NCBI GenBank assembly: GCA_028712375.1
Contig: JAQTQG010000002.1
Span: forward strand, 8,032 to 72,031
Length of the DNA: 64,000 nucleotides
Source of the DNA: Candidatus Omnitrophota bacterium
GTDB lineage: Bacteria; Omnitrophota; Gorgyraeia; Gygaellales; Profunditerraquicolaceae
Direction of reading: 5' to 3'
Shown here: positions 14,754-55,625 of the stretch, piece after piece
Layout: the number at the start of each line of letters is the position of its first letter
Position numbering within the stretch: the first letter of the stretch is position 1
Notes under the pieces: model-generated
Told to the model about the DNA's origin: nothing
The model's input: the letters and a program-made list of their open reading frames with translations, nothing else
The model's database searches: none
Program-made: the position numbers and the translations under genes

Positions 14754-14805
14754 CCAAAATTGAAAATTTTGGCGAGGTCTCACCATTTTTGCAAAGCAAA
14801 AATGG
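14754..14805 (-). terminator. Tandem hairpins immediately 3' of tmRNA (possible terminator/processing structures)
   Basis: CCATTTTTGC-aaa-GCAAAAATGG overlaps the tmRNA CCA end. GCCAAAATT-gaa-AATTTTGGC follows. No clean U-tract. Confidence 0.3.
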
Positions 14806-15209
14806 TGGAGGTGCGGGGAATCGGACCCCGGTCCTTAAGTAATCGCATAAAAGCCGCTACATGCTTAGCCTGATATTTTAATTCTTAACCTTGTAACTCC
14901 TACCCGGCAGGATTTACAAAGCGCAGCCTTTTCGATTTCGCCCCGGTTTGGAAGGCTAACCGCCGGAACTATCCTACTTGAGCCCTAATCTATCCCGTAG
15001 GCAGGACAGTCAGGGGCTTCGGGCTTAATTAAGTCCGAAGGCTGGTACGAACATCGGTTTAGCCGCAAAAGACGGCTGAACAAATGTTCCTAAACGTGAC
15101 ACTTGCGTGTTTGCGTTTGTATTGTGCAAGGATTGTTAACGCGGCTAACCGTGCGTCCGCGGCATGCTGCTCTTATCCGACATATCTTAAGTCGAACCCT
15201 TTCACCCCC
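14803..15209 (-). ncRNA. ssrA: tmRNA (ssrA)
   Basis: Minus-strand 5' end is GGGGGTGAAAGGGTTCGAC. The 3' end is tRNA-like, GGACCGGGGTCCGATTCCCCGCACCTCCACCA, with an encoded CCA. The acceptor pairs GGGGGTG/CACCTCC. It lies directly upstream of smpB. I could not assign the tag-peptide reading frame. Confidence 0.8.
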
Positions 15210-15239
15210 AAGTTTTCAAATAACAATATTTTAAGACGA

Positions 15240-15695
15240 TTATCCTCTGCGATTCTTAATTACCCGGCGCAATAATTTATCAGTCTCCCTGCGCTTAACA
15301 TCTTCCCGCTTATCATAAATCTTTTTACCCTTACAAAGCGCCAGTTCCACTTTGGCAAAACCCCGGTCATTAAAATAAATCTTTAACGGAATTAAAGTCA
15401 GGCCTTTTTGGGTAAGCTTGCCATTTATTCTTTGAATCTGCTTCTTATGCAAAAGCAACTTGCGCGGCCGGTCTGAATTAACATTTAAATAGCTGGCCTG
15501 CGCATAATGGCTGATGTGCGCGTTATATAAAAATATTTCCTGCCCCTCAAAACGGGCAAAACTATCATTCAGATTAACCCGGGCGTCACGTAAAGATTTT
15601 ACTTCCGAACCTTTTAATTCAATGCCGCTTTCCAAAGATTCCAGAACATCATAATCCCTGTATGCTTTACGGTTAGTGGCAATAATATTACTCAT
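15240..15695 (-). CDS. smpB: SsrA-binding protein SmpB
   Basis: Typical SmpB sequence (RKAYRDYDVLESLESGIELKGSEVKSLR ... HKKQIQR) and size. Confidence 0.9.
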   Translation of the reverse strand: MSNIIATNRKAYRDYDVLESLESGIELKGSEVKSLRDARVNLNDSFARFEGQEIFLYNAHISHYAQASYLNVNSDRPRKLLLHKKQIQRINGKLTQKGLTLIPLKIYFNDRGFAKVELALCKGKKIYDKREDVKRRETDKLLRRVIKNRRG

Positions 15696-16896: not shown

Positions 16897-17005
16897 GACT
16901 GCGCTAGATAAAAACTATAAGGTGCTTGATTTAACAGAGTGCTTGCCCTTGCTCGCTAACGCTCGCAAGGACTACGCTAGATAAAAACTATAAGGTGCTT
17001 GATTT
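16897..17005. repeat. 37-nt tandem direct repeat (ggact[g/a]cgctagataaaaactataaggtgcttgattt) flanking a CCTTGC...GCAAGG family hairpin; forms the tRNA-Leu leader
   Basis: DR1 16897-16933 and DR2 16969-17005 differ by 1 mismatch. The hairpin cccttgctcgctaacgctcgcaagga lies at 16946-16972. Confidence 0.75.
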
Positions 17006-17086
17006 GCGGGAGTGGCGGAATGGCATACGCGCACGTCTCAGAAGCGTGTGGGGCAACCCTTGAGGGTTCAACTCCCTCCTCCCGCA
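17006..17086 (+). tRNA. tRNA-Leu (anticodon CAG), long variable arm
   Basis: GCGGGAGTGGCGGAATGGCATACGCGCACGTCTCAGAAGCGTGTGGGGCAACCCTTGAGGGTTCAACTCCCTCCTCCCGCA. Acceptor GCGGGAG/CTCCCGC, T-arm GAGGGTTCAACTCCCTC. Confidence 0.85.
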
Positions 17087-17215
17087 TTAAAATCTCATGA
17101 GGAGGGACTCCTCCCGCATAAAGATCATGAAGAAGAATTTCCGCTTCATCAACTGCTCTTGCGCTAAATTCAAAACTTACTTAAATACTAAATTCCTTCT
17201 TTAACCAATTGACAA

Positions 17216-18391
17216 TCAAAGATACTCGACGGTAACCAGTTTCCCCATTTTTTTAAGCTTATCGATAATCTTCTGAATAATCGCCACCCGCGGCAAAACC
17301 CCCATTTGGCGAAAAACAATATTCTGATATCCCGGATTAGCGGCAGTACCAACTAACAGATTCACTGCATCCACCGAACGCAAAAACATACAAAGACTAG
17401 AAACACAAGAATCAGCCTCATAAGAACCGGGGTCTTCTTCAAGGATATTATAAACCTGATTTAAAGTTAAAACGCCTTCGGTAACCAGATCGATACCGGA
17501 AACTTCATACTGCGGCGGTTTATAATAAGCATCGGAAATCGCCTTAGTTTTAACCGATACACCTAAAAACTTAGCAACAATATCTGCGGTTGTAGAACCA
17601 CAAATAATTTTAATCCCGGGCAAATACATAAAATGTTCTACAGTCTTTTGATCGAACTGACGGTCTGCCGGCGGCCCGGTAAGAATATGCGCTGTTTTTG
17701 TTTTGCGGCATTGCAGAAGAACCACCGTAGAATCATCACCATAGGTCGGCCCGGAATACTGACGCACTTTCTCGATAATCATCTGCGGCAGCATCTCTAC
17801 TGACATCCCTTGAGCAAGAGCGGAACGGATAAACTCCTCCACCCCTTCTTCCCTCCAGCCCAACCGGAAAGTCGAACCCATTCCGGCCTGAGACACCCCA
17901 TCGCTGAATAGAAGCAAAGAATTATGCGTATGCAAATAAAAATGCGCCTCCGCAATCACCTCATTACCCAAAGCAATAAAACGCGGCTGGACTATCGAAG
18001 CAGCCATCTGCCCGATAATTATCGGGGCCGGCATTTCATATGCAGTTACCGTGGTATGCCCATCATTCAGAATCCGGCAGACACAAAACGCAGAAAACGG
18101 AATATCCTGCGTACGGGCAGCGTGCATAGTCATCGCAACTTTAGCCGATGCCTGGCGCAATGAAAAACCGAGCCGTAATAATTCCATCAAACGATTAGCC
18201 GCCATTACCGCAGCGATATGCGCCCTCACACCGCTGCCGATACCATCGCAAAGAATTACCGTTGTAGCTTCTTCAGTGCGTTCAGAAAGCAGATAATCCC
18301 CGCACACAGGCGCGGTGGATTTATTCACCTGGGCAACGGTAATCCCGATATACTTTTTAGAGTTCTGCGGCCTTATCTTCACCATCTTCAT
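17216..18391 (-). CDS. PP2C-type Ser/Thr phosphatase (SpoIIE/RsbU-like) with an uncharacterised C-terminal domain; co-transcribed with the sensory hydrogenase
   Basis: N-terminal PPM motifs (ILCDGIGSGVRAHIAAVMAANRL ... FSDGVSQAG ... YGDDSTVVLL). It overlaps the 3' end of the HydS-like gene by 35 nt. Confidence 0.7.
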   Translation of the reverse strand: MKMVKIRPQNSKKYIGITVAQVNKSTAPVCGDYLLSERTEEATTVILCDGIGSGVRAHIAAVMAANRLMELLRLGFSLRQASAKVAMTMHAARTQDIPFSAFCVCRILNDGHTTVTAYEMPAPIIIGQMAASIVQPRFIALGNEVIAEAHFYLHTHNSLLLFSDGVSQAGMGSTFRLGWREEGVEEFIRSALAQGMSVEMLPQMIIEKVRQYSGPTYGDDSTVVLLQCRKTKTAHILTGPPADRQFDQKTVEHFMYLPGIKIICGSTTADIVAKFLGVSVKTKAISDAYYKPPQYEVSGIDLVTEGVLTLNQVYNILEEDPGSYEADSCVSSLCMFLRSVDAVNLLVGTAANPGYQNIVFRQMGVLPRVAIIQKIIDKLKKMGKLVTVEYL

Positions 18392-20093
18392 TTAAGGTCA
18401 TTAATTTATTCACCAACTCTTCACCCCTGGCAGTACTTTCCCCTAAAAACTGAGCGATATTCTGTGCCATCTTAATTTGATGCTCCAGTAATTCCCTGGC
18501 CTGCCCAACGGTCTGGCTTTTTATCTTACGCAGCTTCTGCTCATTATCACGCAAATGCGACACATCCACAAAAATCCCGACATATTGTTTTTCCTGGCGT
18601 AACGCGTAAATCAGTTGATGGCAGGTTAAATTATACCCGCTAAACTCTACGGTTTCCGCTGAATACTCTTGGGCACCACAGGCAATCTTCTCAAAAACTG
18701 CAGGATCCAACACAAATGAAATATGCTTACCAACAGCTGTATCGGCACAAGCGAAAAATTTCTTAAACGCCTTATTCATGCTGATGATCTGTAAATCCTG
18801 GTTTAAAATCACAATCCCGTTGGGGCTAGTCTCGATTATCCGGTCAGTTTTACATTCGGCCAGCCGGCGCATATATGGAATACACATTTCCGGCTCCGCC
18901 AGCCCTTGAATAACCGCAATCGCTTTTTCCCGGCAGCTATTATAACCACAGGCCCCGCAATTAAGCTGATGATCAGGATCAGCTTTGCCGGTTTGCTCAA
19001 ACACCGCCAAAATATCCTCCTGGCTTACCGGCGCACAAAAATCACCGACCTGATGAAAACTGGAACAAAATAAATCCGGGTTTTCAATCAATGGAATGCT
19101 TTTTTGGGCATTTTTCTGACAATACTCCAATAGCTCCTGGCGCCGCTGAAAAACATTAGATTCAACACTCATCACCGGGCTATTAATACAACCTTGGCTG
19201 CAAAAAAGCGGCTCAAGCAGCAAATAATTTTTGCTTTCAGGAACTGCCTCCAGTAATTCTTTGACCTGGCCAAAACCGCTTGCCTGAACTACCTCCATCT
19301 GTAAGCCATCATCTTTAATTCCGGCGGTTTTAAGTAAACCTCCGGGTAAAGGAAAAAAACTTGCCGCTTCCACCGGCTCCTCGTCAAAAGAACTTTCTTC
19401 GCAAGCAGCCAGATCAATACCTGCAACTTGAAACCAATTTTTAAGTTCCGTAAATGTCAATACAGCATCTACCGCCTGCTGTACTTGAGGCCATTGCGCT
19501 TCCGATTTTTTTGCAACACAAGGGCCGATGAATACTGTTTTAGTATCTTTGCCGAGTTTTTCCTTAAGCATACGGCAATGTACCACCATTGGAGAAGCCA
19601 CGGGAATAAGATAATCGATCAGTTGCGGCTGATAACGTTGGACATAATTAACCAGGGCCGGGCAAGCAGTAGCCACGCAGGGGCCTTGTTTTTTCTGCCG
19701 CACAAACCTATACGTAGCATGGGCAACCTGATAAGCGCCTTGCGCTGTTTGTCCGATATAGTTAAAACCTAACCGGCGCAAAGCCGAAGCCAACCGCTGC
19801 CTCTGCCACTGATTAAACACCGCGGCAAATGACGGGGCTATGCTTACCGCTACTTTTTTCCCGGAAGCCAGCATTTCTTGGACTATTTCAATATCGCAAC
19901 GATAAGTTTTAGCCTGCTGCGGGCACTCGCGGATACAAGTTCCGCAGGCAATACAACGATCCTGATCTACATAAGCCTGCCCATGGCGCATCCGGATAGC
20001 TTTTACCGGACAAGCCCGCACGCAGCGATAGCAATCGCGGCAACGCGCTGTTAAGGTAAAAACAGCCTGATTTAGCCCGGCATTATTATTCAT
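18357..20093 (-). CDS. hydS: Sensory [FeFe]-hydrogenase-like protein (HydS type): N-terminal 4Fe-4S ferredoxin domains, degenerate H-cluster domain, C-terminal PAS domain
   Basis: 2x CxxCxxCxxxCP ferredoxin motifs. H-cluster-like motifs diverge from the catalytic consensus (ACPALV for TSCCPAW, GPCVAKKSE for MPCxxKxxE, EPLFCSQGCINSP for ExMACxGGCxxG). A PAS-like segment lies at the C-terminus. Confidence 0.7.
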   Translation of the reverse strand: MNNNAGLNQAVFTLTARCRDCYRCVRACPVKAIRMRHGQAYVDQDRCIACGTCIRECPQQAKTYRCDIEIVQEMLASGKKVAVSIAPSFAAVFNQWQRQRLASALRRLGFNYIGQTAQGAYQVAHATYRFVRQKKQGPCVATACPALVNYVQRYQPQLIDYLIPVASPMVVHCRMLKEKLGKDTKTVFIGPCVAKKSEAQWPQVQQAVDAVLTFTELKNWFQVAGIDLAACEESSFDEEPVEAASFFPLPGGLLKTAGIKDDGLQMEVVQASGFGQVKELLEAVPESKNYLLLEPLFCSQGCINSPVMSVESNVFQRRQELLEYCQKNAQKSIPLIENPDLFCSSFHQVGDFCAPVSQEDILAVFEQTGKADPDHQLNCGACGYNSCREKAIAVIQGLAEPEMCIPYMRRLAECKTDRIIETSPNGIVILNQDLQIISMNKAFKKFFACADTAVGKHISFVLDPAVFEKIACGAQEYSAETVEFSGYNLTCHQLIYALRQEKQYVGIFVDVSHLRDNEQKLRKIKSQTVGQARELLEHQIKMAQNIAQFLGESTARGEELVNKLMTLNEDGEDKAAEL

Positions 20094-22093
20094 AGCGTTT
20101 TCTCAATTCTTTCTTTTATTCTTTCAAAATTGCAATTTTCAAAAATCTCATCGCCGACCCTGACCACCGGACCCCGGTCACATTTCTCAAAACAAAACGA
20201 AGCCTTAACTTCAACCTTATCGCTCAAGTTATTTTCCCGGATATATTCCAACAACTGCCGCAGCAATGCCTGAGCGCCTTTAAGAAAGCATCCTGTGCCA
20301 AAACAAACTACTAGTTCTATTTTCTTATCCGATTCCGATATTGAAGCATTAATCGTTACCCCTTCATCAAAAATACGCTTACGCGTCTTATAATGAGTAT
20401 GCAGCAGGTTATGCGCTTTGTGCCCGCCTACACTCCCCAGAAGATTTTTGTAAAGCTCATTTAAATATGGATTATCCTGGGATTTATGCAATTGCAGCAT
20501 TTTGTCATTTTCATAAATACCTTTGGTGCGTTTTTTCCTTACCGAAGGATCACGGTAAACCGGCTGCCCTGCTCCGCCCACACAGCCCCCCGGGCAGGCC
20601 ATTACCTCCACGAAATCATACTTCAGATTACCCGTTTTCATTTTCTCAATCAGATTCCGCGCATTCTTAAGCCCGCTTACTACCGCTAATTTAAATTCCC
20701 GTCCGCCAAGTGCCACGGATATTTCGCGTATCCCGCTATCTCCGCGCGCCGCCTGAAATTCATAATTATCGCTTTTTTCCCCCGTTATTTTTTCCGTAAC
20801 AAAACGTAATACCGCCTCGCTGACGCCTCCAGAAGCTCCAAAAATAACCCCGGCACCGGTCTTAAAACCAAACGGTAAATCAAAAGATTCCGGCTCCAGG
20901 GATTCAAAATGTAAACCCGCCTCCTCAATCATCCGGCATAATTCCTGAGTCGTAAGCACATAATCCACATCCGCAACTTCTCCGTGCTTAAACTCCGGGC
21001 GCTTAGCTTCAAACTTTTTAGCCGTACAAGGCATAATCGAAACAACAACAATATCTTTCCGGTCAATTCCTAATTGCGCGCTTAACATTTCTTTGCTCAA
21101 AACCCCAAACATCTGCTGCGGAGAACGGCAGCTGGAAATATTTTTAAGCAACTCCGGGTAATATTGCTCCGCAAATTTTACCCAGGCAGGACAACAAGAA
21201 GTAAATTGCGGGATAAGTTCATTTTTCTTAATCCGCTCAATAAATTCATGGCCTTCCTCAATTACCGTAAGATCGGCAGTAAAAGAAGTATCAAAAACCT
21301 TATCAAAACCCATCGCACGCAAAGCTGAAACAATTTGCCCGGTAGAAGTAGCTCCCGGTTCCAAACCAAACATCTCTCCTACAGCCACGCGTACCGCCGG
21401 AGCAATCTGCGCAATCACCACGCGCTTAGGATTATCCAAAGCTTTCCACACTTCTTCTACTTCGGATTTAGGAGTCAACGCACCGGTAGGGCATACCCGG
21501 CTGCATTGCCCGCAATATACGCACTCCACGCTATCTAAATTTTTACCAAAACAAGGCATCACCGCTGATTTAGATCCACGATGAGCAAAATCAATCGCCC
21601 CTACCGACTGTATTTCAGAACACACCCGCACACAATCTCCGCACAATACGCATTTATTGGGATCGCGCACCAATGAATAAGAAGAATCATCCAGCGCTTC
21701 CTGACGCAGAGTATTTTTAAATCTTACTTTTTTAATCCCCAGCTTACTGGCTAAAGATTGTAACTGGCAATGATTGTTCTTCGGGCATGTCGGGCACCCC
21801 TGATCATGATTGGCTAAAAGTAACTCTACAATAATCTTGCGCATTGAACGGATCTGTTCAGTATTGGTACGCACAGACATTTTGTTCTCCGGGGGAGTCG
21901 AGCAGGCAGGCTGCAGTCCGCGCCCCTGAACCTCCACCATACATAACCGGCAAGCCCCATATACGCTTAATTCGGAATGATAACAAAAGGTCGGTAAATC
22001 AATCTTGGCTTTTCGCACTAACTCCAGCAGGTTACGCTCACCTTCCATCTTAACCTGCTTATTATCAATTAAAACATATGCCGCCTCTTTCAT
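20090..22093 (-). CDS. hydA: [FeFe]-hydrogenase catalytic subunit HydA (bifurcating trimeric type) with N-terminal 2Fe-2S/4Fe-4S domains and a C-terminal thioredoxin-like 2Fe-2S domain
   Basis: H-cluster motifs FTSCCPAWV (L1), IMPCTAKKFEA (L2) and EVMACPGGCVGGAGQP (L3), plus the N-terminal CYHSELSVYGACRLC. Confidence 0.92.
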   Translation of the reverse strand: MKEAAYVLIDNKQVKMEGERNLLELVRKAKIDLPTFCYHSELSVYGACRLCMVEVQGRGLQPACSTPPENKMSVRTNTEQIRSMRKIIVELLLANHDQGCPTCPKNNHCQLQSLASKLGIKKVRFKNTLRQEALDDSSYSLVRDPNKCVLCGDCVRVCSEIQSVGAIDFAHRGSKSAVMPCFGKNLDSVECVYCGQCSRVCPTGALTPKSEVEEVWKALDNPKRVVIAQIAPAVRVAVGEMFGLEPGATSTGQIVSALRAMGFDKVFDTSFTADLTVIEEGHEFIERIKKNELIPQFTSCCPAWVKFAEQYYPELLKNISSCRSPQQMFGVLSKEMLSAQLGIDRKDIVVVSIMPCTAKKFEAKRPEFKHGEVADVDYVLTTQELCRMIEEAGLHFESLEPESFDLPFGFKTGAGVIFGASGGVSEAVLRFVTEKITGEKSDNYEFQAARGDSGIREISVALGGREFKLAVVSGLKNARNLIEKMKTGNLKYDFVEVMACPGGCVGGAGQPVYRDPSVRKKRTKGIYENDKMLQLHKSQDNPYLNELYKNLLGSVGGHKAHNLLHTHYKTRKRIFDEGVTINASISESDKKIELVVCFGTGCFLKGAQALLRQLLEYIRENNLSDKVEVKASFCFEKCDRGPVVRVGDEIFENCNFERIKERIEKTL

Positions 22094-23997
22094 TGCCCAC
22101 CCCCGATAATTGCTTTAAACTTACAGGTTGCCACGCAAGCGCCGCATTTAATGCATATTTTTTGATCAATTACATAAGGTTTACCGGGTTGACCGCTGAT
22201 TGCGTTCACCGGGCATTTTTTACCGCACAAAGAACAACCTTTGCATAAATCCGGATTTATTTTATATTTAGTCAAAGCTTTACAGCGCCCTGCCGGACAA
22301 TATTTGTATTTCACATGCGCCTGGTACTCATCGTGAAAATAACGTAAAGTCGATAATACAGGATTCGGTGCGGTCTTGCCTAACCCGCATAACGACCCGA
22401 CCTGCACCGCTTTAGCCAGGTCTTCCAGAATTACCAAAGTTTCATCCGTTGCCCTGCCTTCAATAATATCATCCAATAAAGCCAACATCTGCTTGGTCCC
22501 TTCACGGCAAAGCACACATTTACCACAAGATTCATTTTGGGTAAACTGCATAAAGAAACGCGCGATACTCACCATGCAGGTCTGGCTATTCATGACAACC
22601 AGGCCGCCGGAACCGATCATCGCGCCTACTTTACGCAACGAATCAAAATCCATCGGGATATCCAGGTGTTCCCGAGTCAGGCATCCTCCGGAAGGCCCTC
22701 CGATTTGTACTGCTTTGAATAATTCAGAGCAAACTGTCCCGTCTTCAGCAGTTACTCCGCCGGCAATTTCATAAACAATCTGGCGTAAGGTCGAACCAAA
22801 GGGAACTTCAATCAAACCTGTATTCACCACATGCCCGGTTAACGCAAAAGTCTTAGTACCGCAAGAACCGGAAGTACCCATCTTTGTATAATCTGCTGCG
22901 CCCATTAACACGATCAACGGAACAGTGGCCAAAGTTTCCACGTTATTAATTACCGTCGGTTTACCCCAAAGCCCGCTTTGCGCCGGGAATGGCGGCTTAG
23001 GGGAAGGCATACCGCGTTTACCTTCGATTGATGCCATCAAAGCCGTCTCTTCACCGCAGACAAAAGCACCGGCACCTTCCATTACCTGCAGGTCAAAATT
23101 AAATCCTGAAGCAAAAATATTTTTACCCAGCACCCCTAATTTACGGGCATCTTCAGCGGCTTTACGCATACGGCGTACAGCCAGCGGATATTCAGCGCGC
23201 ACATATACATATCCTTCATCCGCGCCAATCGCTTTAGCCGCGATCATCATTCCTTCAATAACGCTATGTGGATTGCCTTCCATAACGCTCCGGTCCATAA
23301 ACGCCCCCGGGTCACCTTCATCTCCGTTACAAATCACATACTTCTTGTCGCCTTTCTGGCGTAAGGTAATATCCCATTTCTTTCCGGTAGGAAAACCTCC
23401 GCCGCCGCGCCCGCGCAGCCCTGCGGCGATCATTAAATCGCAAACTTCTTGTGGCCGCATAGAACAAACTACCCTGCCTGCGGCCTCATAACCTCCCCGG
23501 TAAATGTATTCACGAATATCTTCCGGATCAATCTGGCCGCACTCTTTAAGGACAAATCGATGTTGTTTTTGATAAAAAGGGATCTCCTTCGGTGTAGTGC
23601 AGGATTTACCGCTGGAAGGCTCAACATATAAAAGACGCTGAATCACTTCACCTTTCATTAAAGTTTTATTTACAATCTCTTCAGCATCCGCAGGCTTAAC
23701 CCGGGTGTAAAAAATATTTTCCGGCAATATCGTTACTAAAGGGCCCATCTGGCAAAACCCCTGGCATCCGCTCTTAGAAACAAAAACAGAACTATCGGCA
23801 ACTTTATCTTCCCGGCGTAGTTCTAAAACCACCGGCAGTCCGCTTTTATGCAGCTGTGCTTCCAGCTGCGCATATACTTTCAATGACCCGTTAGCCACAC
23901 AACCGGTCCCCGCGCAAACAATAACCCTGCGCACCTGCTTTAAACTTTCGGAAAATTCTTCCCGAATAACCTTAAGATCTGGTAACTGCACCGCCAT
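22090..23997 (-). CDS. hydB: NADH-binding flavoprotein subunit HydB (NuoF-like; FMN, NADH and Fe-S binding)
   Basis: GRGGGGFPTGKKW NuoF motif, an N-terminal thioredoxin-like 2Fe-2S region, and C-terminal 2x4Fe-4S ferredoxin motifs. Confidence 0.9.
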   Translation of the reverse strand: MAVQLPDLKVIREEFSESLKQVRRVIVCAGTGCVANGSLKVYAQLEAQLHKSGLPVVLELRREDKVADSSVFVSKSGCQGFCQMGPLVTILPENIFYTRVKPADAEEIVNKTLMKGEVIQRLLYVEPSSGKSCTTPKEIPFYQKQHRFVLKECGQIDPEDIREYIYRGGYEAAGRVVCSMRPQEVCDLMIAAGLRGRGGGGFPTGKKWDITLRQKGDKKYVICNGDEGDPGAFMDRSVMEGNPHSVIEGMMIAAKAIGADEGYVYVRAEYPLAVRRMRKAAEDARKLGVLGKNIFASGFNFDLQVMEGAGAFVCGEETALMASIEGKRGMPSPKPPFPAQSGLWGKPTVINNVETLATVPLIVLMGAADYTKMGTSGSCGTKTFALTGHVVNTGLIEVPFGSTLRQIVYEIAGGVTAEDGTVCSELFKAVQIGGPSGGCLTREHLDIPMDFDSLRKVGAMIGSGGLVVMNSQTCMVSIARFFMQFTQNESCGKCVLCREGTKQMLALLDDIIEGRATDETLVILEDLAKAVQVGSLCGLGKTAPNPVLSTLRYFHDEYQAHVKYKYCPAGRCKALTKYKINPDLCKGCSLCGKKCPVNAISGQPGKPYVIDQKICIKCGACVATCKFKAIIGGGQ

Positions 23998-24481
23998 TTA
24001 AACGCTCCTCTTTCTTTAAAATTTCATCAATAAGTGCTACTGCTTTTCCCGGAGTCATCTGCCCATGCACCTCATCATCCACAACAATAACCGGTGCCAG
24101 TCCGCAAGCACCCAGGCAAGAAACAGTCTCAATTGTAAATAACATATCCGGGGTAGTCATAACATTATCTTTAAGCCCGAGTTTCTGACGCATCGCCTCT
24201 AATAGCCCGGTAGATTTTTTAACATGGCAGGCTGTACCGTCACAGATACGAATAATATATTTGCCTTTAGGTATCAGGGTAAAATGCGAATAAAAAGTAG
24301 CCACCCCATATACTCTGGCCGGGGTTAAATTCAAAGATACCGCAACAAAAGTAAGGATCTCCTCCGGCAGGTAACGGTACTCTTCCTGCACTGCCTGCAG
24401 AATAGGAATCAACCGGCTGGGATCCCGGTTATTCTGCTGAAGTATTTGACAAACTTTTTCTAATTTACGCAATCCTTCCAT
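23972..24481 (-). CDS. hydC: NuoE-like 2Fe-2S subunit HydC
   Basis: Thioredoxin-like [2Fe-2S] ferredoxin motifs ICDGTACHVK and CLGACGLAPV. Confidence 0.9.
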   Translation of the reverse strand: MEGLRKLEKVCQILQQNNRDPSRLIPILQAVQEEYRYLPEEILTFVAVSLNLTPARVYGVATFYSHFTLIPKGKYIIRICDGTACHVKKSTGLLEAMRQKLGLKDNVMTTPDMLFTIETVSCLGACGLAPVIVVDDEVHGQMTPGKAVALIDEILKKEERLNGGAVTRS

Positions 24482-24497
24482 TTCTCTATTTTTCTCC

Positions 24498-25163
24498 TTA
24501 TCTTTCCGCTAATAATAATGCCAGCCGTTTGGATAATACGGCAAGTGAAGACGCTAAGTTTTCATGTTGAACAATAATGCCTTCAGGGACACTTATCTTG
24601 ACCGGAGCAAAGTTCCAAATCGCTTTAATCCCGGCTTCTACCATCATATTAGCAAGTTCCTGAGCAGGCGCAGCAGGCGCAGCCAGGATACCTATTTTAA
24701 TCCCCATGCGCTTGATCATTTCCGGAAGCTTCTTTACCGATAAAACTTTCTTACCCCTGATCTCTTTGCCAATTTTTTCAGGCGAACTATCAAAAGCAGC
24801 GACAATATTTAACCCGTAATCCTTAAACCCCTGGTAACCCAAAAGTGCCGAACCCAGGTTCCCGGTTCCCACCAGATAAGCTTCCGTAGTATTATTCCAA
24901 CCCAAAAAATTCTCAATCGCCTTAATTACCTCTGCTACTTTATAACCGACCTTCGGCCTGCCTTCTGCTCCGGTAATCTCCAAATCTTTACGCACCTGAA
25001 TCGCCAGCGTATTCAAATCCTCGGAAATCCGGGTGCAAGATATGTATTCAACAGGACGATCTTGGACAATCTTTTTTAAATACTGATAATAAACCGGCAA
25101 CCTGCGCAACACCGGCTCAGGAATAACTTTTACCACTAGTTCTGCGGGCCTGGGGTTAACCAT
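24498..25163 (-). CDS. rex: Redox-sensing transcriptional repressor Rex
   Basis: N-terminal winged helix (PEPVLRRLPVYYQYL) and a Rossmann NADH-binding domain (LVGTGNLGSAL). Confidence 0.9.
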   Translation of the reverse strand: MVNPRPAELVVKVIPEPVLRRLPVYYQYLKKIVQDRPVEYISCTRISEDLNTLAIQVRKDLEITGAEGRPKVGYKVAEVIKAIENFLGWNNTTEAYLVGTGNLGSALLGYQGFKDYGLNIVAAFDSSPEKIGKEIRGKKVLSVKKLPEMIKRMGIKIGILAAPAAPAQELANMMVEAGIKAIWNFAPVKISVPEGIIVQHENLASSLAVLSKRLALLLAER

Positions 25164-25185
25164 AATCCTACCTCCGGGTTAAATA

Positions 25186-25234
25186 GATAAATATTTATCA
25201 ATAAAAGTATATCTATAAAAATTTATCTTGTCAA
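25186..25234 (-). promoter_or_regulatory. Promoter of the rex-hydCBA operon (TTGACA-17-TATACT on the minus strand) with a 14-bp palindrome GATAAATATTTATC at the +1 region (candidate Rex operator)
   Basis: -35 is the reverse complement of 25229-25234 and -10 the reverse complement of 25206-25211. The palindrome at 25186-25199 resembles the Rex box TTGTGAAATATTTCACAA (TTGATAAATATTTATCTA on the minus strand). Confidence 0.5.
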
Positions 25235-26508: not shown

Positions 26509-27882
26509 CTAACGAGGCTCATGGGGTTTTTGCTCAATATTGATATAGTCCCCAAAATCTATCTTTTCGCCGAGCTCTTGTTTCACAACCCTGATCCGGT
26601 CAGGGACATAAGGGTGAGTCTTATAATATGAGCGCTCCCTAAGCGGCATCCTGCGGTTTATATCCTGAAGCTTAATTAAAAAAGTCACCATGCCATGCGG
26701 ATCGTAACCGGCTAACTTAGCATAACGGGCACCCAGCTGATCCGCCAATAACTCATCTTCACGCCCATAACCCAGTAAAAACTCAGTAAAAGCGGCATCC
26801 GCGGCATTACCCACATCCGAAGCACCGGGAGCTACCGCTACCAAAACCCTTAAAATAGAATAGCTCTGCATCGCCTGAAGCTTCTTAATGCTATGCCGGG
26901 CAACAATGTGCCCTACCTCATGCGCTAAAATACAGGCCAACTCATCATCATTAGCCACTTTATCCAACAGGCCGCTGTTCACATAAACATACCCTCCGGG
27001 CAAAGACACGGCGTTTACCTCATCATCCTCTAAAACCCGGAAATGATAATCGATTTCTTTTCTATCGCTGACGGCAGATATCTTTTTTCCGATATCTTCC
27101 ACGCGTTTCTGCTGCAGCGGATCGGCAGAAAGTTTTAATTCTTTCTCTACTCTTAAGTTAATGGACCGGCCCATCTGCACTTCCTTATCCGTACTGTAAT
27201 AATATTTTTCTTCCTGCTTAGTAGCAAGATTATATTCCGTAGAACATCCGGGCAAAACCAGTGCGGCCATCAAACAATAAGTAAGCGTTAAAAAGAATGA
27301 AAATAACTTTATATCAAATTTCTTAAGCATCAAATACAACTTTCTCAAAGGCAGGCCGACTACATTATAGAAACAACCATCTATGCTCTTAATAAAAAAT
27401 GCCCCTTTTCCCTGAATATCAAAACTCCCCGCTTTATCCAAAGGAGAAACTTGTTTAAAATAATTATCAATCTGCGCCTGGCTTAATTTATCCATACAGA
27501 CTCTTGTTTTTTCATAATCCAATATTAAACTCTGCTTAGTTTTATTTTTTTTGATCACTGCCAGGCCGGTGTAAAGCCATTGCGGACGGCGGGATAACTG
27601 TTTAAGCATCCGGCGGGCATCCGGTATATTTTTGGGCTTGCCGAATATTTTGCCATTTTGCACACAAACAGTATCGGCGGCGATGATTACTCCTTCTGCC
27701 ACCCTGGAAGCCACCTCTTCTGCTTTTTCCCGGGCATTCTTCTGCACGAGCTGAGAGTATGACAATTTACCGCGTTTAGCTTGTTCCTTGATTTTAGAAG
27801 GCAGGACTTTAAAACGCAGGCCAAATTTCTCTAATAATTTCTTTCTGGCTTTAGAATTGGAGGCTAAATATATTTTCACCAT
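26509..27882 (-). CDS. Maf-like nucleotide pyrophosphatase fused in frame to a lipoprotein-type M48 (BepA/LoiP-like) zinc metalloprotease
   Basis: N-terminal Maf (MVKIYLASNSKARKKLL ... NVVGLPL). An in-frame internal signal peptide with lipobox (MLKKFDIKLFSFFLTLTYCLMAALVLPGCS) follows. Then an M48 domain (ILAHEVGHIVARHS, THPYVPDRI). The start is set at MVKIY because the upstream ORF extension overlaps a structured noncoding element. Confidence 0.6.
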   Translation of the reverse strand: MVKIYLASNSKARKKLLEKFGLRFKVLPSKIKEQAKRGKLSYSQLVQKNAREKAEEVASRVAEGVIIAADTVCVQNGKIFGKPKNIPDARRMLKQLSRRPQWLYTGLAVIKKNKTKQSLILDYEKTRVCMDKLSQAQIDNYFKQVSPLDKAGSFDIQGKGAFFIKSIDGCFYNVVGLPLRKLYLMLKKFDIKLFSFFLTLTYCLMAALVLPGCSTEYNLATKQEEKYYYSTDKEVQMGRSINLRVEKELKLSADPLQQKRVEDIGKKISAVSDRKEIDYHFRVLEDDEVNAVSLPGGYVYVNSGLLDKVANDDELACILAHEVGHIVARHSIKKLQAMQSYSILRVLVAVAPGASDVGNAADAAFTEFLLGYGREDELLADQLGARYAKLAGYDPHGMVTFLIKLQDINRRMPLRERSYYKTHPYVPDRIRVVKQELGEKIDFGDYINIEQKPHEPR

Positions 27883-27899
27883 ATCTTTACCCATAGATA

Positions 27900-28045
27900 A
27901 ACGGTGAGACTTGTTTAAGCAGCATCTTAAAATTCGAGCGGGCAAGGTTGCCCGCAATAAATGTCTTGGCAGAGCGAGAATTTTACCGAAGCGCAGCTGG
28001 CCACGCTGGGGCCAGCAAGCGGTGCGGCGAGAACAAGTCTCACCG
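27900..28045. other. ~146-nt GC-rich structured element bounded by 13-bp inverted repeats (GGTGAGACTTGTT / AACAAGTCTCACC); candidate small ncRNA or MITE-like insertion
   Basis: Terminal inverted repeats, plus internal hairpins GCGGGCAA-gg-TTGCCCGC and GCTGGCC-acgctggg-GGCCAGC. It is intergenic between the Maf-M48 gene and the HI0933 flavoprotein. Confidence 0.5.
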
Positions 28046-50687: not shown

Positions 50688-51473
50688 TTAAGGAAAAATA
50701 AAATAGAATAACGCGGTAATCAAGCAATCCGCGGCCAGAATCATCAAAAAGCTGATTACCACTGAACGCGTAGTGGCCCGGCCTACTCCCACTGCCCCGC
50801 CGTCAACATTAAAACCTTCATAGCAACTTACCAGGGCGATAACCATACCAAAGATCCAGGCTTTAAATAATCCCGTACATAAATCTTTATACAGCAAAGC
50901 AGAAAACGTCATATTCATGTACATGCTGCTGGTAATTCCTAATTTTACTACACAGATAAGATAGCTTCCAATTATTCCGACGATATTAGCATATAACGTA
51001 AGCACAGGAAGCATAATGCCCAGAGCGACAAAACGCGGCACAACTAAGTATTTTATCGGATTAGTCGCCAAAGTTTCTAAAGCGTCGATCTGCTCAGTAA
51101 CCTGCATCGAGCCTAATTCGGCGGTATTGGCCGCACCTACCCTTCCGGCAACAATTAAAGCGGTAATCACCGGGCCTAGTTCGCGCACAATCGCCAAAGC
51201 CACGAGGCTTGCGATATACATCTCTGAACCGATGCGCTGCATAAAATAACCGAATTGCAGCGCAAAAATAAAACCGATAAACAAAGCGACTACCGAAACA
51301 ATCGGCAGGCTGTCGTAACCGGCTTTTTTAGACTGCTCCACAATATGGCCATATTTATATGGAGGCTTAAAAGTTTGATAAACAGTCTGCGCCGTCAAAC
51401 TGGCTAAGCCGCCGAAAAAATACATAAAAGAAAGTATTTTACGGCCCAGGTCCATAAAAAATAGCATAAACAT
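50688..51473 (-). CDS. mlaE: ABC transporter permease MlaE
   Basis: MlaE/YrbE-family permease architecture. Confidence 0.8.
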   Translation of the reverse strand: MFMLFFMDLGRKILSFMYFFGGLASLTAQTVYQTFKPPYKYGHIVEQSKKAGYDSLPIVSVVALFIGFIFALQFGYFMQRIGSEMYIASLVALAIVRELGPVITALIVAGRVGAANTAELGSMQVTEQIDALETLATNPIKYLVVPRFVALGIMLPVLTLYANIVGIIGSYLICVVKLGITSSMYMNMTFSALLYKDLCTGLFKAWIFGMVIALVSCYEGFNVDGGAVGVGRATTRSVVISFLMILAADCLITALFYFIFP

Positions 51474-53896
51474 TATCCGAAAATCAGCTCTTCATTCTTG
51501 CGCGTTACTTTAATTAAAGAGCCCTCCTTATATTTTTTAGAAATAATCTCATTGGCTAAAGAATCTTCCAGGTATCTTTGAATAGTCCTTTTTAAGGGAC
51601 GGGCGCCAAAAACAGGGTCAAACCCTTTTTCAATTAAAAGATCCTTAGCCTCCTGGCTTACCTCTAGAACAATTTTTTGCTCTTTTAGGCGTTCAATCAC
51701 ATAACCGATCTCGATATCAATAATCTTAGAGAGATCTTCTCTGACTAACTGCTTAAAAACAATAATATCATCGATACGGTTTAAGAACTCCGGCTTAAAA
51801 GCATGTTTGACCGCTTCCAGGAGCTTATCTTTCATATCCTGGTAAGTACCTTCGTCTTTTTGTGATTTAAAACCCAATGAGCCGGTTTTACGGATTAATT
51901 CTGCCCCGACATTAGAAGTCATAATAATAATCGTATTCTTAAAGTTTACTTTACGGCCAAAACTATCAGTAAGCCGGCCTTCCTCAAAAACCTGCAGCAG
52001 TAAATTAAAAACATCCGGATGCGCTTTTTCAATTTCATCTAAAAGTATAACCGCGTAAGGCCGCCGGCGCACGCGTTCAGTCAGTTGCCCGCCCTCCTCA
52101 TATCCCACATACCCCGGGGGAGCGCCGATTAAACGCGAAACATTAAACTTTTCCATATATTCGGACATATCTATTTGCAGCAACGCGTCTTCATCTCCAA
52201 ACATAAACTCCGCTAATGCCCTAGCCAGCAAAGTTTTCCCTACTCCAGTCGGGCCTAGAAATACAAATGAACCGATTGGCCGCTTAGGGTCTTTGATCCC
52301 GGCACGCGAACGCCTTACCGCGTGAGCAATCGCTTCAATCGCTTCATTCTGGCCCACTACGCGCTTATGCAATTCTTCTTCAATTTTAAGTAACTTTTCA
52401 CTTTCCTTCTCTTCTAACCTAAAGATAGGAATTCCAGTCCACTGCGCCAGGATTTTAGCAATATCTTCTCCAGTCACTTCCGGGCGCATCTTATCTTTAG
52501 CCTGGCTCCATTCTTTATTTAACCGCTCCAATTCCTGACGGGCAACACGTTCCTGATCCCGCAAAGAAGCAGCTTTCTCAAAATCCTGGCTCTTAATATA
52601 AGCTTCTTTTTCTTTTCTTAATGACTCGACATTTGCTTCGATGCTCTTGATATTTTCCGGAACAATCAGGACATTTAAGCGCGCGCGGGAACCGGCTTCA
52701 TCAATCAAATCAATCGCTTTATCCGGCATAAATCTTCCGGTAATGTAGCGGTCGCTTAATACAGCCGCTGCCTCCAGGGCTTCATCTTTAAAAGTAACCC
52801 GGTGATGCGCTTCATACTTATCCCGCAGGCCTTTCAAAATTTTAACGGTTTGCTCAACGGTAGGCGGTTCCACCATAATCGTCTGAAAACGGCGCTCCAA
52901 AGCTGCATCTTTTTCAATATATTTACGGTATTCATTAATCGTAGTAGCCCCGATACACTGCATCTCCCCCCGGGAAAGAGAAGGCTTCATAATATTAGAA
53001 GCATCGATGGCGCCTTCGGCGGCTCCGGCACCCACTAAAGTATGCAGTTCGTCAATAAAAATAATTACATCCTGGGAACGCTTAATCTCTTCCATAATTG
53101 CCTTGATTCTTTCTTCAAACTGCCCGCGGTATTTAGTCCCGGCAACCATTAATGCCAGATCCAGGACAACAATACGTTTTCCTCTTAAAACTTCAGGAAT
53201 ATTTCCGGCGTTAATTAACTGGGCTAACCCTTCCACAATCGCGGTTTTACCGACTCCGGCTTCCCCTAAAAGCACCGGATTATTTTTAGTGCGGCGGCTT
53301 AAGATTTGCACTACCCGCTCAATCTCCTGCGCCCGGTCAATTACCGGATCCAACTTATTTTCACGCGCCAAAGCTGTCAGGTCCCTGCCAAAAGCATCCA
53401 GGGCCGGAGTCTTAGACTTTGCTGCTTGCGGGCCCTGTTGTTGGCCCATCCCCGGTAAAGCCGAGCCTAAAAGGCTCATCACCTCATTACGCACAGAATT
53501 TAAATCCATACCCAGATTTAATAACACTTGCGAAGCAATACCTTCACCTTCGCGAATAAGCCCGAGTAAAAGATGTTCTGTACCGATATAATTATGCCCT
53601 AAAGAACGTGCCTCTTCGGCTGCCAGCTCTAAAGCTTTTTTGGCACGCGGAGTAAAAGGAATATCACCGATAATCTGAGTAGCCGGGCCGGGCTGCACCA
53701 ACTTCTCAATCTCCAGCCTGATATTCTCCAGCGAAACTTCCAGTTTCTGCAATACCGCCGCCGCTACTCCTTCGCCTTCCCGGATCAAGCCTAAAAGTAT
53801 ATGTTCAGTACCGATATAATCATGATTAAAACGCCTGGCTTCTTCCTTGGCTAAAATAATCACTTTTCTTGCTCTTTCCGTAAAACGATTAAACAT
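51473..53896 (-). CDS. clpC: ATP-dependent Clp protease ATP-binding subunit ClpC
   Basis: Two Clp_N repeats, two AAA+ modules (GEAGVGKTAIVEGLA; GPTGVGKTLLARALA), a short UVR-like linker and an LGF ClpP-docking loop. 807 aa. Confidence 0.9.
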   Translation of the reverse strand: MFNRFTERARKVIILAKEEARRFNHDYIGTEHILLGLIREGEGVAAAVLQKLEVSLENIRLEIEKLVQPGPATQIIGDIPFTPRAKKALELAAEEARSLGHNYIGTEHLLLGLIREGEGIASQVLLNLGMDLNSVRNEVMSLLGSALPGMGQQQGPQAAKSKTPALDAFGRDLTALARENKLDPVIDRAQEIERVVQILSRRTKNNPVLLGEAGVGKTAIVEGLAQLINAGNIPEVLRGKRIVVLDLALMVAGTKYRGQFEERIKAIMEEIKRSQDVIIFIDELHTLVGAGAAEGAIDASNIMKPSLSRGEMQCIGATTINEYRKYIEKDAALERRFQTIMVEPPTVEQTVKILKGLRDKYEAHHRVTFKDEALEAAAVLSDRYITGRFMPDKAIDLIDEAGSRARLNVLIVPENIKSIEANVESLRKEKEAYIKSQDFEKAASLRDQERVARQELERLNKEWSQAKDKMRPEVTGEDIAKILAQWTGIPIFRLEEKESEKLLKIEEELHKRVVGQNEAIEAIAHAVRRSRAGIKDPKRPIGSFVFLGPTGVGKTLLARALAEFMFGDEDALLQIDMSEYMEKFNVSRLIGAPPGYVGYEEGGQLTERVRRRPYAVILLDEIEKAHPDVFNLLLQVFEEGRLTDSFGRKVNFKNTIIIMTSNVGAELIRKTGSLGFKSQKDEGTYQDMKDKLLEAVKHAFKPEFLNRIDDIIVFKQLVREDLSKIIDIEIGYVIERLKEQKIVLEVSQEAKDLLIEKGFDPVFGARPLKRTIQRYLEDSLANEIISKKYKEGSLIKVTRKNEELIFG

Positions 53897-54005
53897 GATA
53901 ATTTCTCCTCTAATATACCCCCGGTTAATCCCCTTCGGGGATCAAACATGGAGGACTGCGTTAAATAAAAACTACAGGATGCTCAATTAACAGATTAGCC
54001 TAAAA

Positions 54006-55064
54006 TTAAGCGCCCATTAAGTTAAGTTTTTTCCTAATCAACTCTGCTCTTTTTAAGTCCCGCTGGTCTGAAGAAAGCTTGACATTCTCCAACTTCTGCA
54101 AATGTGCCGGCTGAGTAATAATAAACAGTTCGTTAATTGTGCGCCGGTCAATATCCTTAATCATTCCCAGGTCGCTGCCTAACCTGACCATAGACAACAA
54201 TTCAATTGTCTCCTGGCTGGTAATGATCCGGGCACTTTTTAAAATTCCCAGGGAACGGTTAATCCTATCCTCCAGGATTTCTTTGCTTTTAGTCAACATA
54301 ATCTCCCGGGCCTGCGTCTCCTGTTCAATAATCTGCCGGATAAGGCCGTTAATATTTTCAATAATCTCCGTTTCACTATGCCCCAAAGAAACCTGATTGG
54401 AAATTTGAAAAAAATTCCCGCTGGCCTGCGTGCCTTCTCCATAAAGCCCGCGCGTAGTAAAACTTAATTTGGCAATCGCCGCCAACACCCGCTCAATCTG
54501 CCGGCTCATTACCAACGCAGGCAAATGCAGCATCACTGACCCACGCATGCCCGTACCGGTATTGGTCGGGCAAGCGGTAAGATAACCAAAATCATCCAAA
54601 TAGGCATAATCCAGAAGTTTAGCTAAAGCATCATCAATACCATTAATAATTTCCCAGGCTTCGAAAAGATTGAAACCTGATTGCATAAGCTGAATGCGCA
54701 AATGATCCTCTTCGTTAATCATCACGGCGATATTTTCTTCATCGTTCACCAAGACTGCTTTTTGTTCTGTTTTTTGAGTATGCTCGATAGACATCAGGTG
54801 CCTTTCCACCAAGAATTGTTTATCGATACTGTCTAAGTCCGCTAAAATAAAAAGCGTGGCTTTGCTCAGTACATCCACTTTGCCCATTGCCTGACGGGTC
54901 TTTTCCAAAACCTCATTTAGCTGCGCCTTAGATGCCCAATGCGGAAAAGGAAACTTATTTAAATTCCTGGCCAGGCGGATTCTACTGGAGATCACGATAT
55001 CCGAATTCGGTCCCGTACCCTTAAGCCATTCGCTGGTATGATTAATTAAATCATTAATCTGCAT
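54006..55064 (-). CDS. mcsB: Protein-arginine kinase McsB (ATP:guanido phosphotransferase)
   Basis: Phosphagen-kinase catalytic motif CPTNTGTGMRGSVMLHLP. Confidence 0.88.
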   Translation of the reverse strand: MQINDLINHTSEWLKGTGPNSDIVISSRIRLARNLNKFPFPHWASKAQLNEVLEKTRQAMGKVDVLSKATLFILADLDSIDKQFLVERHLMSIEHTQKTEQKAVLVNDEENIAVMINEEDHLRIQLMQSGFNLFEAWEIINGIDDALAKLLDYAYLDDFGYLTACPTNTGTGMRGSVMLHLPALVMSRQIERVLAAIAKLSFTTRGLYGEGTQASGNFFQISNQVSLGHSETEIIENINGLIRQIIEQETQAREIMLTKSKEILEDRINRSLGILKSARIITSQETIELLSMVRLGSDLGMIKDIDRRTINELFIITQPAHLQKLENVKLSSDQRDLKRAELIRKKLNLMGA

Positions 55065-55109
55065 ATCATCCTTTATTTGCTCATGTTTTTATGCTGCTTC
55101 CTGAAACCT

Positions 55110-55625
55110 CTAAGCACTGTCCTGCTGCGAGGACATTTTCTTGATCTGATCACGCAGGCGCGCTGCTTCTTCAAAAGCTTCCTGCTGAATAGCTTTTTGC
55201 AGCTGGTCTTTTAATTCTTGTAAACCGGATTTCTTTTTATTAGGCTTAAGCGTAATTTTTGCTTTAGCCGGATTTTTCCCGACATGCTGATTTGAGCCAT
55301 GAATGCGCTTTAATAAAGGTGCCAGGTATTTACGAAAAGCATTAAAACATTCCCCGCAGCCTAACCGTCCGATCTTCTTAAAATCCGCATAAGTCAAGCC
55401 GCAAGCGGGGCATTTAATGGTAACCGGCTCTTCTTCTTTATCCGAAGAGGGTTTTTCAAAATCCGCCATACCTGCTAACAGGTCACTTAAACCAAACTGC
55501 TGCTCCATGGCCGCGCTTTTATGCCTGGCGCAATCCTCGCATAAATGCAGTTCATTCATCTGCTCATCAATAATCTCAGTCAAATGCACAGTAGCCGGAT
55601 TTTTACCGCAAATATCACAAAGCAT
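55110..55625 (-). CDS. mcsA: McsA-like activator of protein-arginine kinase (zinc fingers + UVR domain)
   Basis: CDICG...CEDC...CPACG...CGEC zinc-binding modules and a C-terminal UVR-like helix (QEAFEEAARLRDQIKKM). Confidence 0.8.
   Translation of the reverse strand: MLCDICGKNPATVHLTEIIDEQMNELHLCEDCARHKSAAMEQQFGLSDLLAGMADFEKPSSDKEEEPVTIKCPACGLTYADFKKIGRLGCGECFNAFRKYLAPLLKRIHGSNQHVGKNPAKAKITLKPNKKKSGLQELKDQLQKAIQQEAFEEAARLRDQIKKMSSQQDSA

Follow-up and report, generated by a model that had tools for sequence, protein, structure and literature searches.

A rex-headed [FeFe]-hydrogenase operon of Candidatus Omnitrophota with a HydS-type sensory hydrogenase and a phosphatase carrying an orphan C-terminal domain

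In a Candidatus Omnitrophota bacterium, the gene for a putative sensory [FeFe] hydrogenase, HydS, is followed directly by the gene for a SpoIIE/PP2C-type phosphatase, and both stand at the end of a gene cluster for the hydrogenase HydABC. The cluster lies within 64 kb of contig JAQTQG010000002.1 (assembly GCA_028712375.1), the whole of which was analysed and is called here the window; coordinates refer to it unless a related locus is named. The question raised by this locus is how such a phosphatase would act, having no kinase gene beside it and ending in a domain that could not be assigned to any family. An earlier note, made from the sequence alone, had proposed that this domain stands instead of the kinase with which the phosphatase is paired in characterised systems, and that either the kinase is encoded elsewhere or the signalling output is different. 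The literature still terms the H2-signalling function of sensory [FeFe] hydrogenases putative, and according to a 2026 study their interaction partners remain to be identified. Their signal output is a field-wide question, and the comparative data presented here bear on it.

The operon and its relatives

We consider it likely that the locus is a single operon in which the genes of an electron-bifurcating [FeFe] hydrogenase (HydABC) are joined by those of a dedicated control module with two inputs, and that this operon type is conserved across phyla. The listing of open reading frames (ORFs) and profile searches placed six genes in the same direction on the minus strand (17216-25163), in the order rex-hydC-hydB-hydA-hydS-phosphatase that the earlier note had given. 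The first of them, rex (24498-25163), codes for a redox-sensing repressor of 221 residues with Put_DNA-bind_N and CoA_binding domains, which matched the NF003994 equivalog at 290 bits against a cut-off of 130. It is followed by hydC (23972-24481; 169 residues), encoding a NuoE-like thioredoxin-type [2Fe-2S] subunit (PF01257, 2Fe-2S_thioredx, E = 1e-48), and by hydB (22090-23997; 635 residues), encoding a NuoF-like subunit for flavin mononucleotide and NADH with extra Fe-S domains (Complex1_51K, NADH_4Fe-4S and Fer4). The catalytic subunit is encoded by hydA (20090-22093); its 667 residues include a C-terminal thioredoxin-like 2Fe-2S domain, and it scored 782.6 against the NF040763 model for NADH-dependent [FeFe] hydrogenases, above the cut-off of 765. 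The H-cluster motifs of HydA are canonical, as had been claimed: TSCCPAW, MPCTAKKFE and EVMACPGGC (EVMACPGGCVGGAGQP). A NuoF-like HydB and a NuoE-like HydC encoded together with HydA are the genes by which a bifurcating HydABC of group A3 / A6 is recognised, and an electron-bifurcating activity is predicted from them. The hydE, hydF and hydG maturase genes were not found within the window, so that the description of the locus as complete is valid only for its structural and regulatory genes.

The fifth gene, hydS (18357-20093), encodes a 578-residue [FeFe] hydrogenase of the group C sensory type. Two N-terminal [4Fe-4S] domains (Fer4) are followed by the H-domain (Fe_hyd_lg_C), a PF04060 cluster, a PAS domain (PAS_8) and a helical tail; the four cysteines of the C-terminal cluster are spaced C-x2-C-x4-C-x16-C at residue 379 (CGACGYNSC...C). 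The architecture reported for sensory hydrogenases of group C (M2f) likewise comprises two [4Fe-4S] clusters, the H-domain, a C-terminal four-cysteine cluster and PAS (PMC13104023). The H-cluster motifs of HydS are altered to ATACP, GPCVAKK and EPLFCSQGC, and these changes turned out to be family-wide: among 69 orthologues from related loci, xTACP or xSACP was present in 64, GPCxxK in all 69 and EPLFC in 63, whereas the HydA proteins adjoining those orthologues retain TSCCP, MPCxxK and E(V/I)MAC. These data agree with the earlier description of HydS as a paralogue with systematically altered motifs and a PAS domain.

The last gene (17216-18391) encodes the phosphatase, with a PF07228 (SpoIIE) match over residues 41-228, and its start overlaps the 3' end of hydS by 29-35 nucleotides. 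Its PPM/SpoIIE catalytic domain (residues 1-230) is encoded at 17702-18391, and an orphan domain of a predicted Rossmann-like fold (residues ~232-391) at 17216-17701, stop codon included. The operon ends, as the note had stated, at a tRNA: a convergent tRNA-Leu(CAG) predicted by ARAGORN on the plus strand (17005-17087), 128 nucleotides beyond the phosphatase stop, marks its downstream limit.

Homologues of the six window proteins were located in 84 related loci, labelled as Omnitrophota, Syntrophorhabdaceae, Planctomycetota, Bacillota (including the cultured Sporobacter termitidis DSM 10068), Spirochaetota, Riflebacteria and others. Where enough upstream DNA was available, hydS lay directly upstream of the phosphatase gene in 62 of 65 loci, the remaining three having a frameshifted hydS, an inserted ORF and a rex-phosphatase pair, respectively. 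The phosphatase is therefore a near-obligate downstream neighbour of HydS, and the full order rex-hydC-hydB-hydA-hydS-phosphatase was kept in 36 of 49 loci. The locus under study is an ordinary member of a widespread operon type and not an anomalous one; by itself it adds little, being one more example of it. Operons of the form rex-(fdx)-hydS-phosphatase, without hydrogenase structural genes, were present in L044, L046 and L065, the last being the locus of S. termitidis DSM 10068.

Some variants of this arrangement deserve mention on their own account. At L076 (9330-15476 of that locus), rex overlaps the phosphatase gene by 4 nucleotides without an intervening hydS, and the genes that follow encode EtfB, EtfA(Fer4) and a CCG-domain Fe-S oxidoreductase; a Rex-phosphatase pair thus heads a different electron-transfer operon. 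Downstream of hydS and the phosphatase gene in L058 (2129-5365) is a gene for a 1078-residue protein in which a GltD-like NAD(P)H oxidoreductase is fused to a HydA-type hydrogenase. In a locus from Candidatus Wallbacteria (L037, 3728-9980), two ORFs of 851 and 616 residues with no Pfam match flank hydS, and one of them parts it from the phosphatase gene. Other recurrent neighbours were considered as partners and set aside, the frequent ones being either specific to Syntrophorhabdaceae or heterogeneous (an AMP-binding enzyme, sigma-54 activators, ABC transporters).

The orphan domain and the kinase question

The C-terminal part of the phosphatase is a separate domain of ~160 residues. The earlier note had called it unassigned, which stands, and had put its size at ~190 residues, which does not. 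No Pfam family was matched by hmmscan with the window domain or with 32 diverse members, and profile searches of Protein Data Bank (PDB) sequences gave no significant match. Three candidate relatives were rejected: FolC, which appeared as a sub-threshold PDB profile match (E = 0.075); the DRTGG proteins of neighbouring clusters, to which hhalign gave a probability of 0.9%; and eIF2-alpha (PDB 9h74_A), whose C-terminal domain resembles a 40-residue PP.Y....TEG..LNQ stretch (alignment A3), probably by chance. For this last match the whole-sequence E value was 0.002, the per-domain E values were 7-10, and the segment is present twice in the chain.

Modelled alone, the domain gave a predicted local distance difference test score of 88 and a three-layer alpha/beta fold of generic Rossmann-like type. 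A Foldseek search with this model returned nothing at E <= 0.001, the best fold likenesses being to the dinucleotide-binding domains of molybdopterin enzymes, NuoG, sirtuins and CARF. At only 28-39% sequence identity, the homologues conserve a motif after each of the first four strands (GPP, CGGTT, TEG and G..N, in this order), together with a PP pair and a GK that precedes the last strand. In the model, the conserved loops are placed at the C-terminal edge of the sheet, two of them at helix N-termini. Such positions are the usual site of ligand or phosphate binding in Rossmann-like folds, and the loops of this domain may accordingly line a ligand-binding edge.

A search with the full-length phosphatase retrieved 1717 homologues; the 120 listed were all of ~376-400 residues, and the domain was present in all homologues of ~390 residues. 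The best named one (76% identity) came from a Candidatus Omnitrophota metagenome-assembled genome with the same operon. When the C-terminal domain alone was searched exhaustively, 690 clusters at 50% identity were obtained; among the best 150 of them no protein exceeded 431 residues, and the domain was C-terminal in every match of at least 300 residues, while shorter matches may be fragments. Judged by sequence, the domain belongs to essentially every HydS-linked phosphatase.

A comparison with Ruminococcus albus 7 bears on the relation between domain and kinase. Its hydS cluster on pRUMAL01 (Zheng et al. 2014, as cited in PMC5707799; Greening et al. 2019, PMC6776011) has the order rex, adhE, a gene annotated as "phosphotransferase", two 2Fe-2S ferredoxin genes, hydS, a SpoIIE phosphatase gene (389 residues) and hydA2. 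The R. albus phosphatase aligned over residues 16-390 of the window protein and keeps the C-terminal domain motifs, although PP2C identity is only 26%. The kinase of this operon belongs to the APH family of phosphotransferases (PF01636) and is not of the RsbW type. Because the R. albus phosphatase has the domain and its operon has a kinase, the two coexist, and the proposal that the domain is found instead of a kinase does not hold. The idea that the domain marks a different signalling output is not supported either, as the same domain occurs in R. albus, in the hfsC-like phosphatase of L045 and in all ~390-residue homologues. L045, from Riflebacteria, contains an hfs-like cluster encoding a 2Fe-2S protein, a HydS-like protein, the phosphatase and a HydA2-like protein.

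The absence of an adjacent kinase, on the other hand, was confirmed for the whole window. A Pfam scan of its 64 ORFs of at least 90 residues detected no HATPase_c, Pkinase, APH or STAS domain, and phmmer searches of its six frames found no match to SpoIIAB, RsbW, SpoIIAA or RsbV seeds or to the R. albus APH kinase. The 64 kb thus contain no Ser/Thr kinase, RsbW-like or other, and no STAS partner. The only kinase-like protein encoded there is the arginine kinase McsB (54006-55064), unrelated to Ser/Thr signalling, in a cluster of genes for ClpC, McsB (protein arginine kinase) and an McsA-like UVR protein (51473-55625).

Beyond the window, clustering of all other neighbouring ORFs revealed no conserved kinase neighbour in the 84 loci, nor did any of them contain a homologue of the R. 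albus APH kinase. Of 41 Ruminococcus-like metagenomic loci with at least 5 kb of upstream DNA, 34 have kept the APH kinase, which is a lineage-specific addition. As this kinase is limited to Ruminococcus-like loci and absent from the window and the 84 loci, linkage without a kinase is the norm, and a linked kinase is the exception in this phosphatase family.

A second kind of kinase gene was found in four Syntrophorhabdaceae-like loci (L010, L014, L015 and L020), where a cluster divergent from rex encodes a DRTGG protein, a HATPase_c_2 (RsbW-like) protein, a 446-residue hydrogenase without a PAS domain and another DRTGG protein (in L014, 489-3064 on the minus strand). The 446-residue hydrogenase has the C-terminal four-cysteine cluster, and in domain content it agrees with the sensory type published as group D (M2e). 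Because these clusters adjoin rex, kinase-linked and phosphatase-linked sensory hydrogenases are here encoded side by side. Apart from the HATPase_c_2 protein of the four loci, which belongs with a different sensory hydrogenase, nothing points to a neighbouring Ser kinase. A STAS and RsbW pair in L027 was rejected as a partner, being part of a separate partner-switching operon with its own dCache-HAMP-SpoIIE phosphatase; the STAS and RsbW pair of L029 lies 5 kb downstream. The earlier note had named two findings that would count against its view. One was that the domain is a standard phosphatase extension with homologues not linked to hydrogenases: phosphatases of this family do carry it as a standard extension, but the linkage of its homologues to hydrogenases is tight. 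The other was a kinase gene just beyond a related locus: such genes were found in the four Syntrophorhabdaceae-like loci only, and there as part of the neighbouring divergent cluster.

These results allow the alternative explanations to be weighed. A C-terminal domain that takes the place of the kinase, or that lends the locus a signalling output unlike that of characterised HydS systems, would agree with the lack of a kinase in the window and of any Pfam or PDB assignment for the domain; nevertheless, the joint presence of domain and kinase in R. albus largely refutes this idea, which we regard as very improbable. An opposing kinase encoded elsewhere in the genome is possible, although we think it doubtful. 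It could be an HATPase_c_2 (RsbW-like) protein travelling with group D hydrogenases and DRTGG proteins, as the divergent clusters of the four Syntrophorhabdaceae-like loci suggest, or an APH-type enzyme as in the Ruminococcus-type loci; group C with the phosphatase and group D with the kinase would in that case form a single phospho-switch with two arms. That the group D and kinase arm could oppose the group C and phosphatase arm is an attractive idea derived from one lineage. The HATPase_c_2 adjacency, limited to that lineage, could reflect a single event, the window and the other ~80 loci lack both types of kinase, and the STAS and RsbW genes of L027 belong to an independent module.

Two further explanations concern the phosphatase itself. 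A modest Pfam score (56 bits, although above threshold) and a very weak TIGR02865 match would be expected of a catalytically dead scaffold. However, the metal-binding aspartates D31, D48, D163, D218 and D219 and the DG.G.G motif were invariant among 31 homologues (alignment A1), align with the GD, DGMG, SDG and DD residues of SpoIIE and are kept in the R. albus sequence. The PPM catalytic centre is intact, phosphatase activity is predicted, and a pseudo-phosphatase seems hardly credible. Alternatively, the C-terminal domain might sense a small molecule (a nucleotide, NAD(H) or a phospho-metabolite), so that the phosphatase would combine a metabolic input with the H2 signal coming from HydS. 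The likeness of its fold to dinucleotide-binding domains, and the position of the GPP, CGGTT, TEG and G..N motifs after strands 1-4, favour this view, which we put forward tentatively as a rather unlikely one. On balance, the domain would be a regulatory or docking module of the phosphatase, or a ligand sensor, and not a substitute for a kinase.

Rex control and the proposed two-input module

The note had described the locus as controlled by Rex. Rex, identified by NF003994, is encoded at the head of the operon, but the canonical Rex box (TGTGA-N6-TCACA, with up to one mismatch) is absent from the window, and a degenerate pattern allowing three mismatches performed no better than chance. What the window has in its place is a variant palindrome. 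The rex gene is directly preceded by a promoter-like site (TTGACA-17 nt-TATACT; 25206-25234, minus strand), recognised purely by its 11 of 12 matches to the consensus. Between its -10 hexamer and the rex start is a near-perfect 18-bp palindrome, TTGATAAATATTTATCTA (25184-25201), with the core GATAA-N4-TTATC at 25186-25199, and a second operator-like site with one mismatch, TATAAAAATTTATC (25214-25227), lies 28 bp upstream of the first, within the promoter spacer. In 28 of 41 related loci, the pattern GATAA-N4-TTATC occurs in the 150 bp that precede rex, with a density of 8.0 per kb in comparison with 0.088 per kb over the loci overall (~90-fold), and often as two or three sites spaced 14 or 28 bp apart. 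This palindrome is the likely operator of this Rex subfamily, a role to which its position and enrichment point.

We propose that the operon responds to two inputs. The first would be the NADH/NAD+ ratio, which would set transcription as Rex binds the two GATAA-N4-TTATC palindromes over the promoter. The second would be H2, reported by HydS, a hydrogenase paralogue of putatively low activity in which the surroundings of the proton relay and the second sphere are altered. The H2 signal would pass through the C-terminal cluster, the PAS domain and the helical tail to the phosphatase, which HydS would modulate inside a complex. A stoichiometric HydS-phosphatase complex is predicted from the overlap of the two genes and their near-constant adjacency. 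The phosphatase would in turn dephosphorylate a phosphoprotein target encoded outside the locus, as would be the opposing kinase.

Several points weigh against this proposal. The HydS-phosphatase complex, the phosphatase activity and the responsiveness to H2 are all predictions from sequence. H2 does not reduce the C-terminal cluster of TamHydS, a related enzyme of group D, which makes a simple redox relay from this cluster to the PAS domain doubtful. The palindrome over the promoter departs from the canonical Rex boxes and might be bound by another regulator; and the kinase search refers to the 64 kb of the window and not to the rest of the genome.

The rex-(fdx)-hydS-phosphatase operons without hydrogenase structural genes and the rex-phosphatase overlap of L076 make Rex a candidate target or partner of the phosphatase. 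A bolder version of this idea is that Rex, HydS and the phosphatase form a self-contained integrator of H2 and NADH signals, in which the orphan domain is the long-sought receiver coupling [FeFe] sensory hydrogenases to phospho-signalling and either Rex or the hydrogenase is the substrate. Such an integrator would explain the L044, L046 and L065 operons and the L076 pair, which lacks hydS; we consider it unlikely. For experimental work on the proposed module, the HydS-phosphatase adjacency, the always-present conserved Rossmann-like domain, the rarity of a linked kinase, and the Rex with its distinctive operator that travels with the pair offer useful handles.

Elsewhere in the window, a probable integrated element (474-5991) adjoins a tRNA-His gene (5915-5991). 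It includes genes for a Dcm-type C5 methylase (474-1628), a Vsr endonuclease (1583-2008), a MazG-like protein (3011-3358), a DUF2924 protein (3537-4007) and a large serine recombinase (4004-5614), and GC content falls to 0.35-0.36 across the first 4 kb. A tmRNA gene beside smpB (14803-15695) has an unusually long predicted tag peptide, ANTQVSRLGTFVQPSFAAKPMFVPAFGLN. An ORF of 482 residues (26509-27957) contains both a Maf domain (residues 28-214) and an M48 peptidase domain (280-460), and represents either a fusion or two adjacent genes.

Comparison with known systems

Published Rex boxes of anaerobes include TTGTGAA-N4-TTCACAA and TTGTTA-N6-TAACAA (PMC5886521), and a Rex site is predicted upstream of hfsABCD in Thermoanaerobacterium saccharolyticum. 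As in those anaerobe Rex regulons, rex here opens a hydrogenase operon, and the 18-bp palindrome over the promoter shares the geometry of the published boxes; the half-site differs, being TTGATA here and TTGTGA or TTGTTA in the published boxes.

The phosphatase studied here differs from the partner-switching phosphatases RsbU, RsbP and SpoIIE, which have STAS and RsbW/SpoIIAB partners: the window encodes neither a STAS antagonist nor an HATPase_c kinase, and neither is conserved in the neighbourhood of the homologues of the phosphatase. Its regulatory domain is, in addition, C-terminal and of an unrelated, unassigned type.

The R. albus cluster, to which the hfsABCD operon of T. saccharolyticum is arranged comparably (PMC11837493), shares with the window a rex gene at its head and an overlapping SpoIIE phosphatase gene after hydS, whose product has the same C-terminal domain. 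It regulates, however, the ferredoxin-only HydA2 and adhE rather than HydABC, and it adds two small 2Fe-2S ferredoxins and the APH kinase, neither of which is encoded in the window. The position of hydS after hydCBA also sets the window apart from the R. albus/hfs-type cluster.

For HydS, the closest reference is TmHydS (PMC10055695), a spectroscopically characterised group C enzyme with A131, G177 and S267 at the altered positions. Both proteins combine an H-domain with PAS, and in both the proton-relay cysteine is replaced by alanine (A131) and the methionine near the bridging CO by glycine (G177); set against the published positions only, the third second-sphere position differs, as it is leucine here (EPLFC, in 63 of the 69 orthologues) and Ser267 in TmHydS. 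In both cases HydS is assumed to regulate the hydrogenase of its own operon.

Finally, HydDB (Sondergaard, Pedersen and Greening 2016, PMC5037454) recognises a group C3 of "phosphatase-linked (putative)" sensory hydrogenases, for which the role was listed as undetermined and H2 sensing with regulation via the phosphatase was proposed; Greening et al. (2019, PMC6776011) counted the phosphatase among the subunits of enzymes of this class. By gene linkage the locus belongs with this group, given that, as in C3, a PAS-bearing HydS-type protein is encoded directly beside a Ser/Thr phosphatase.

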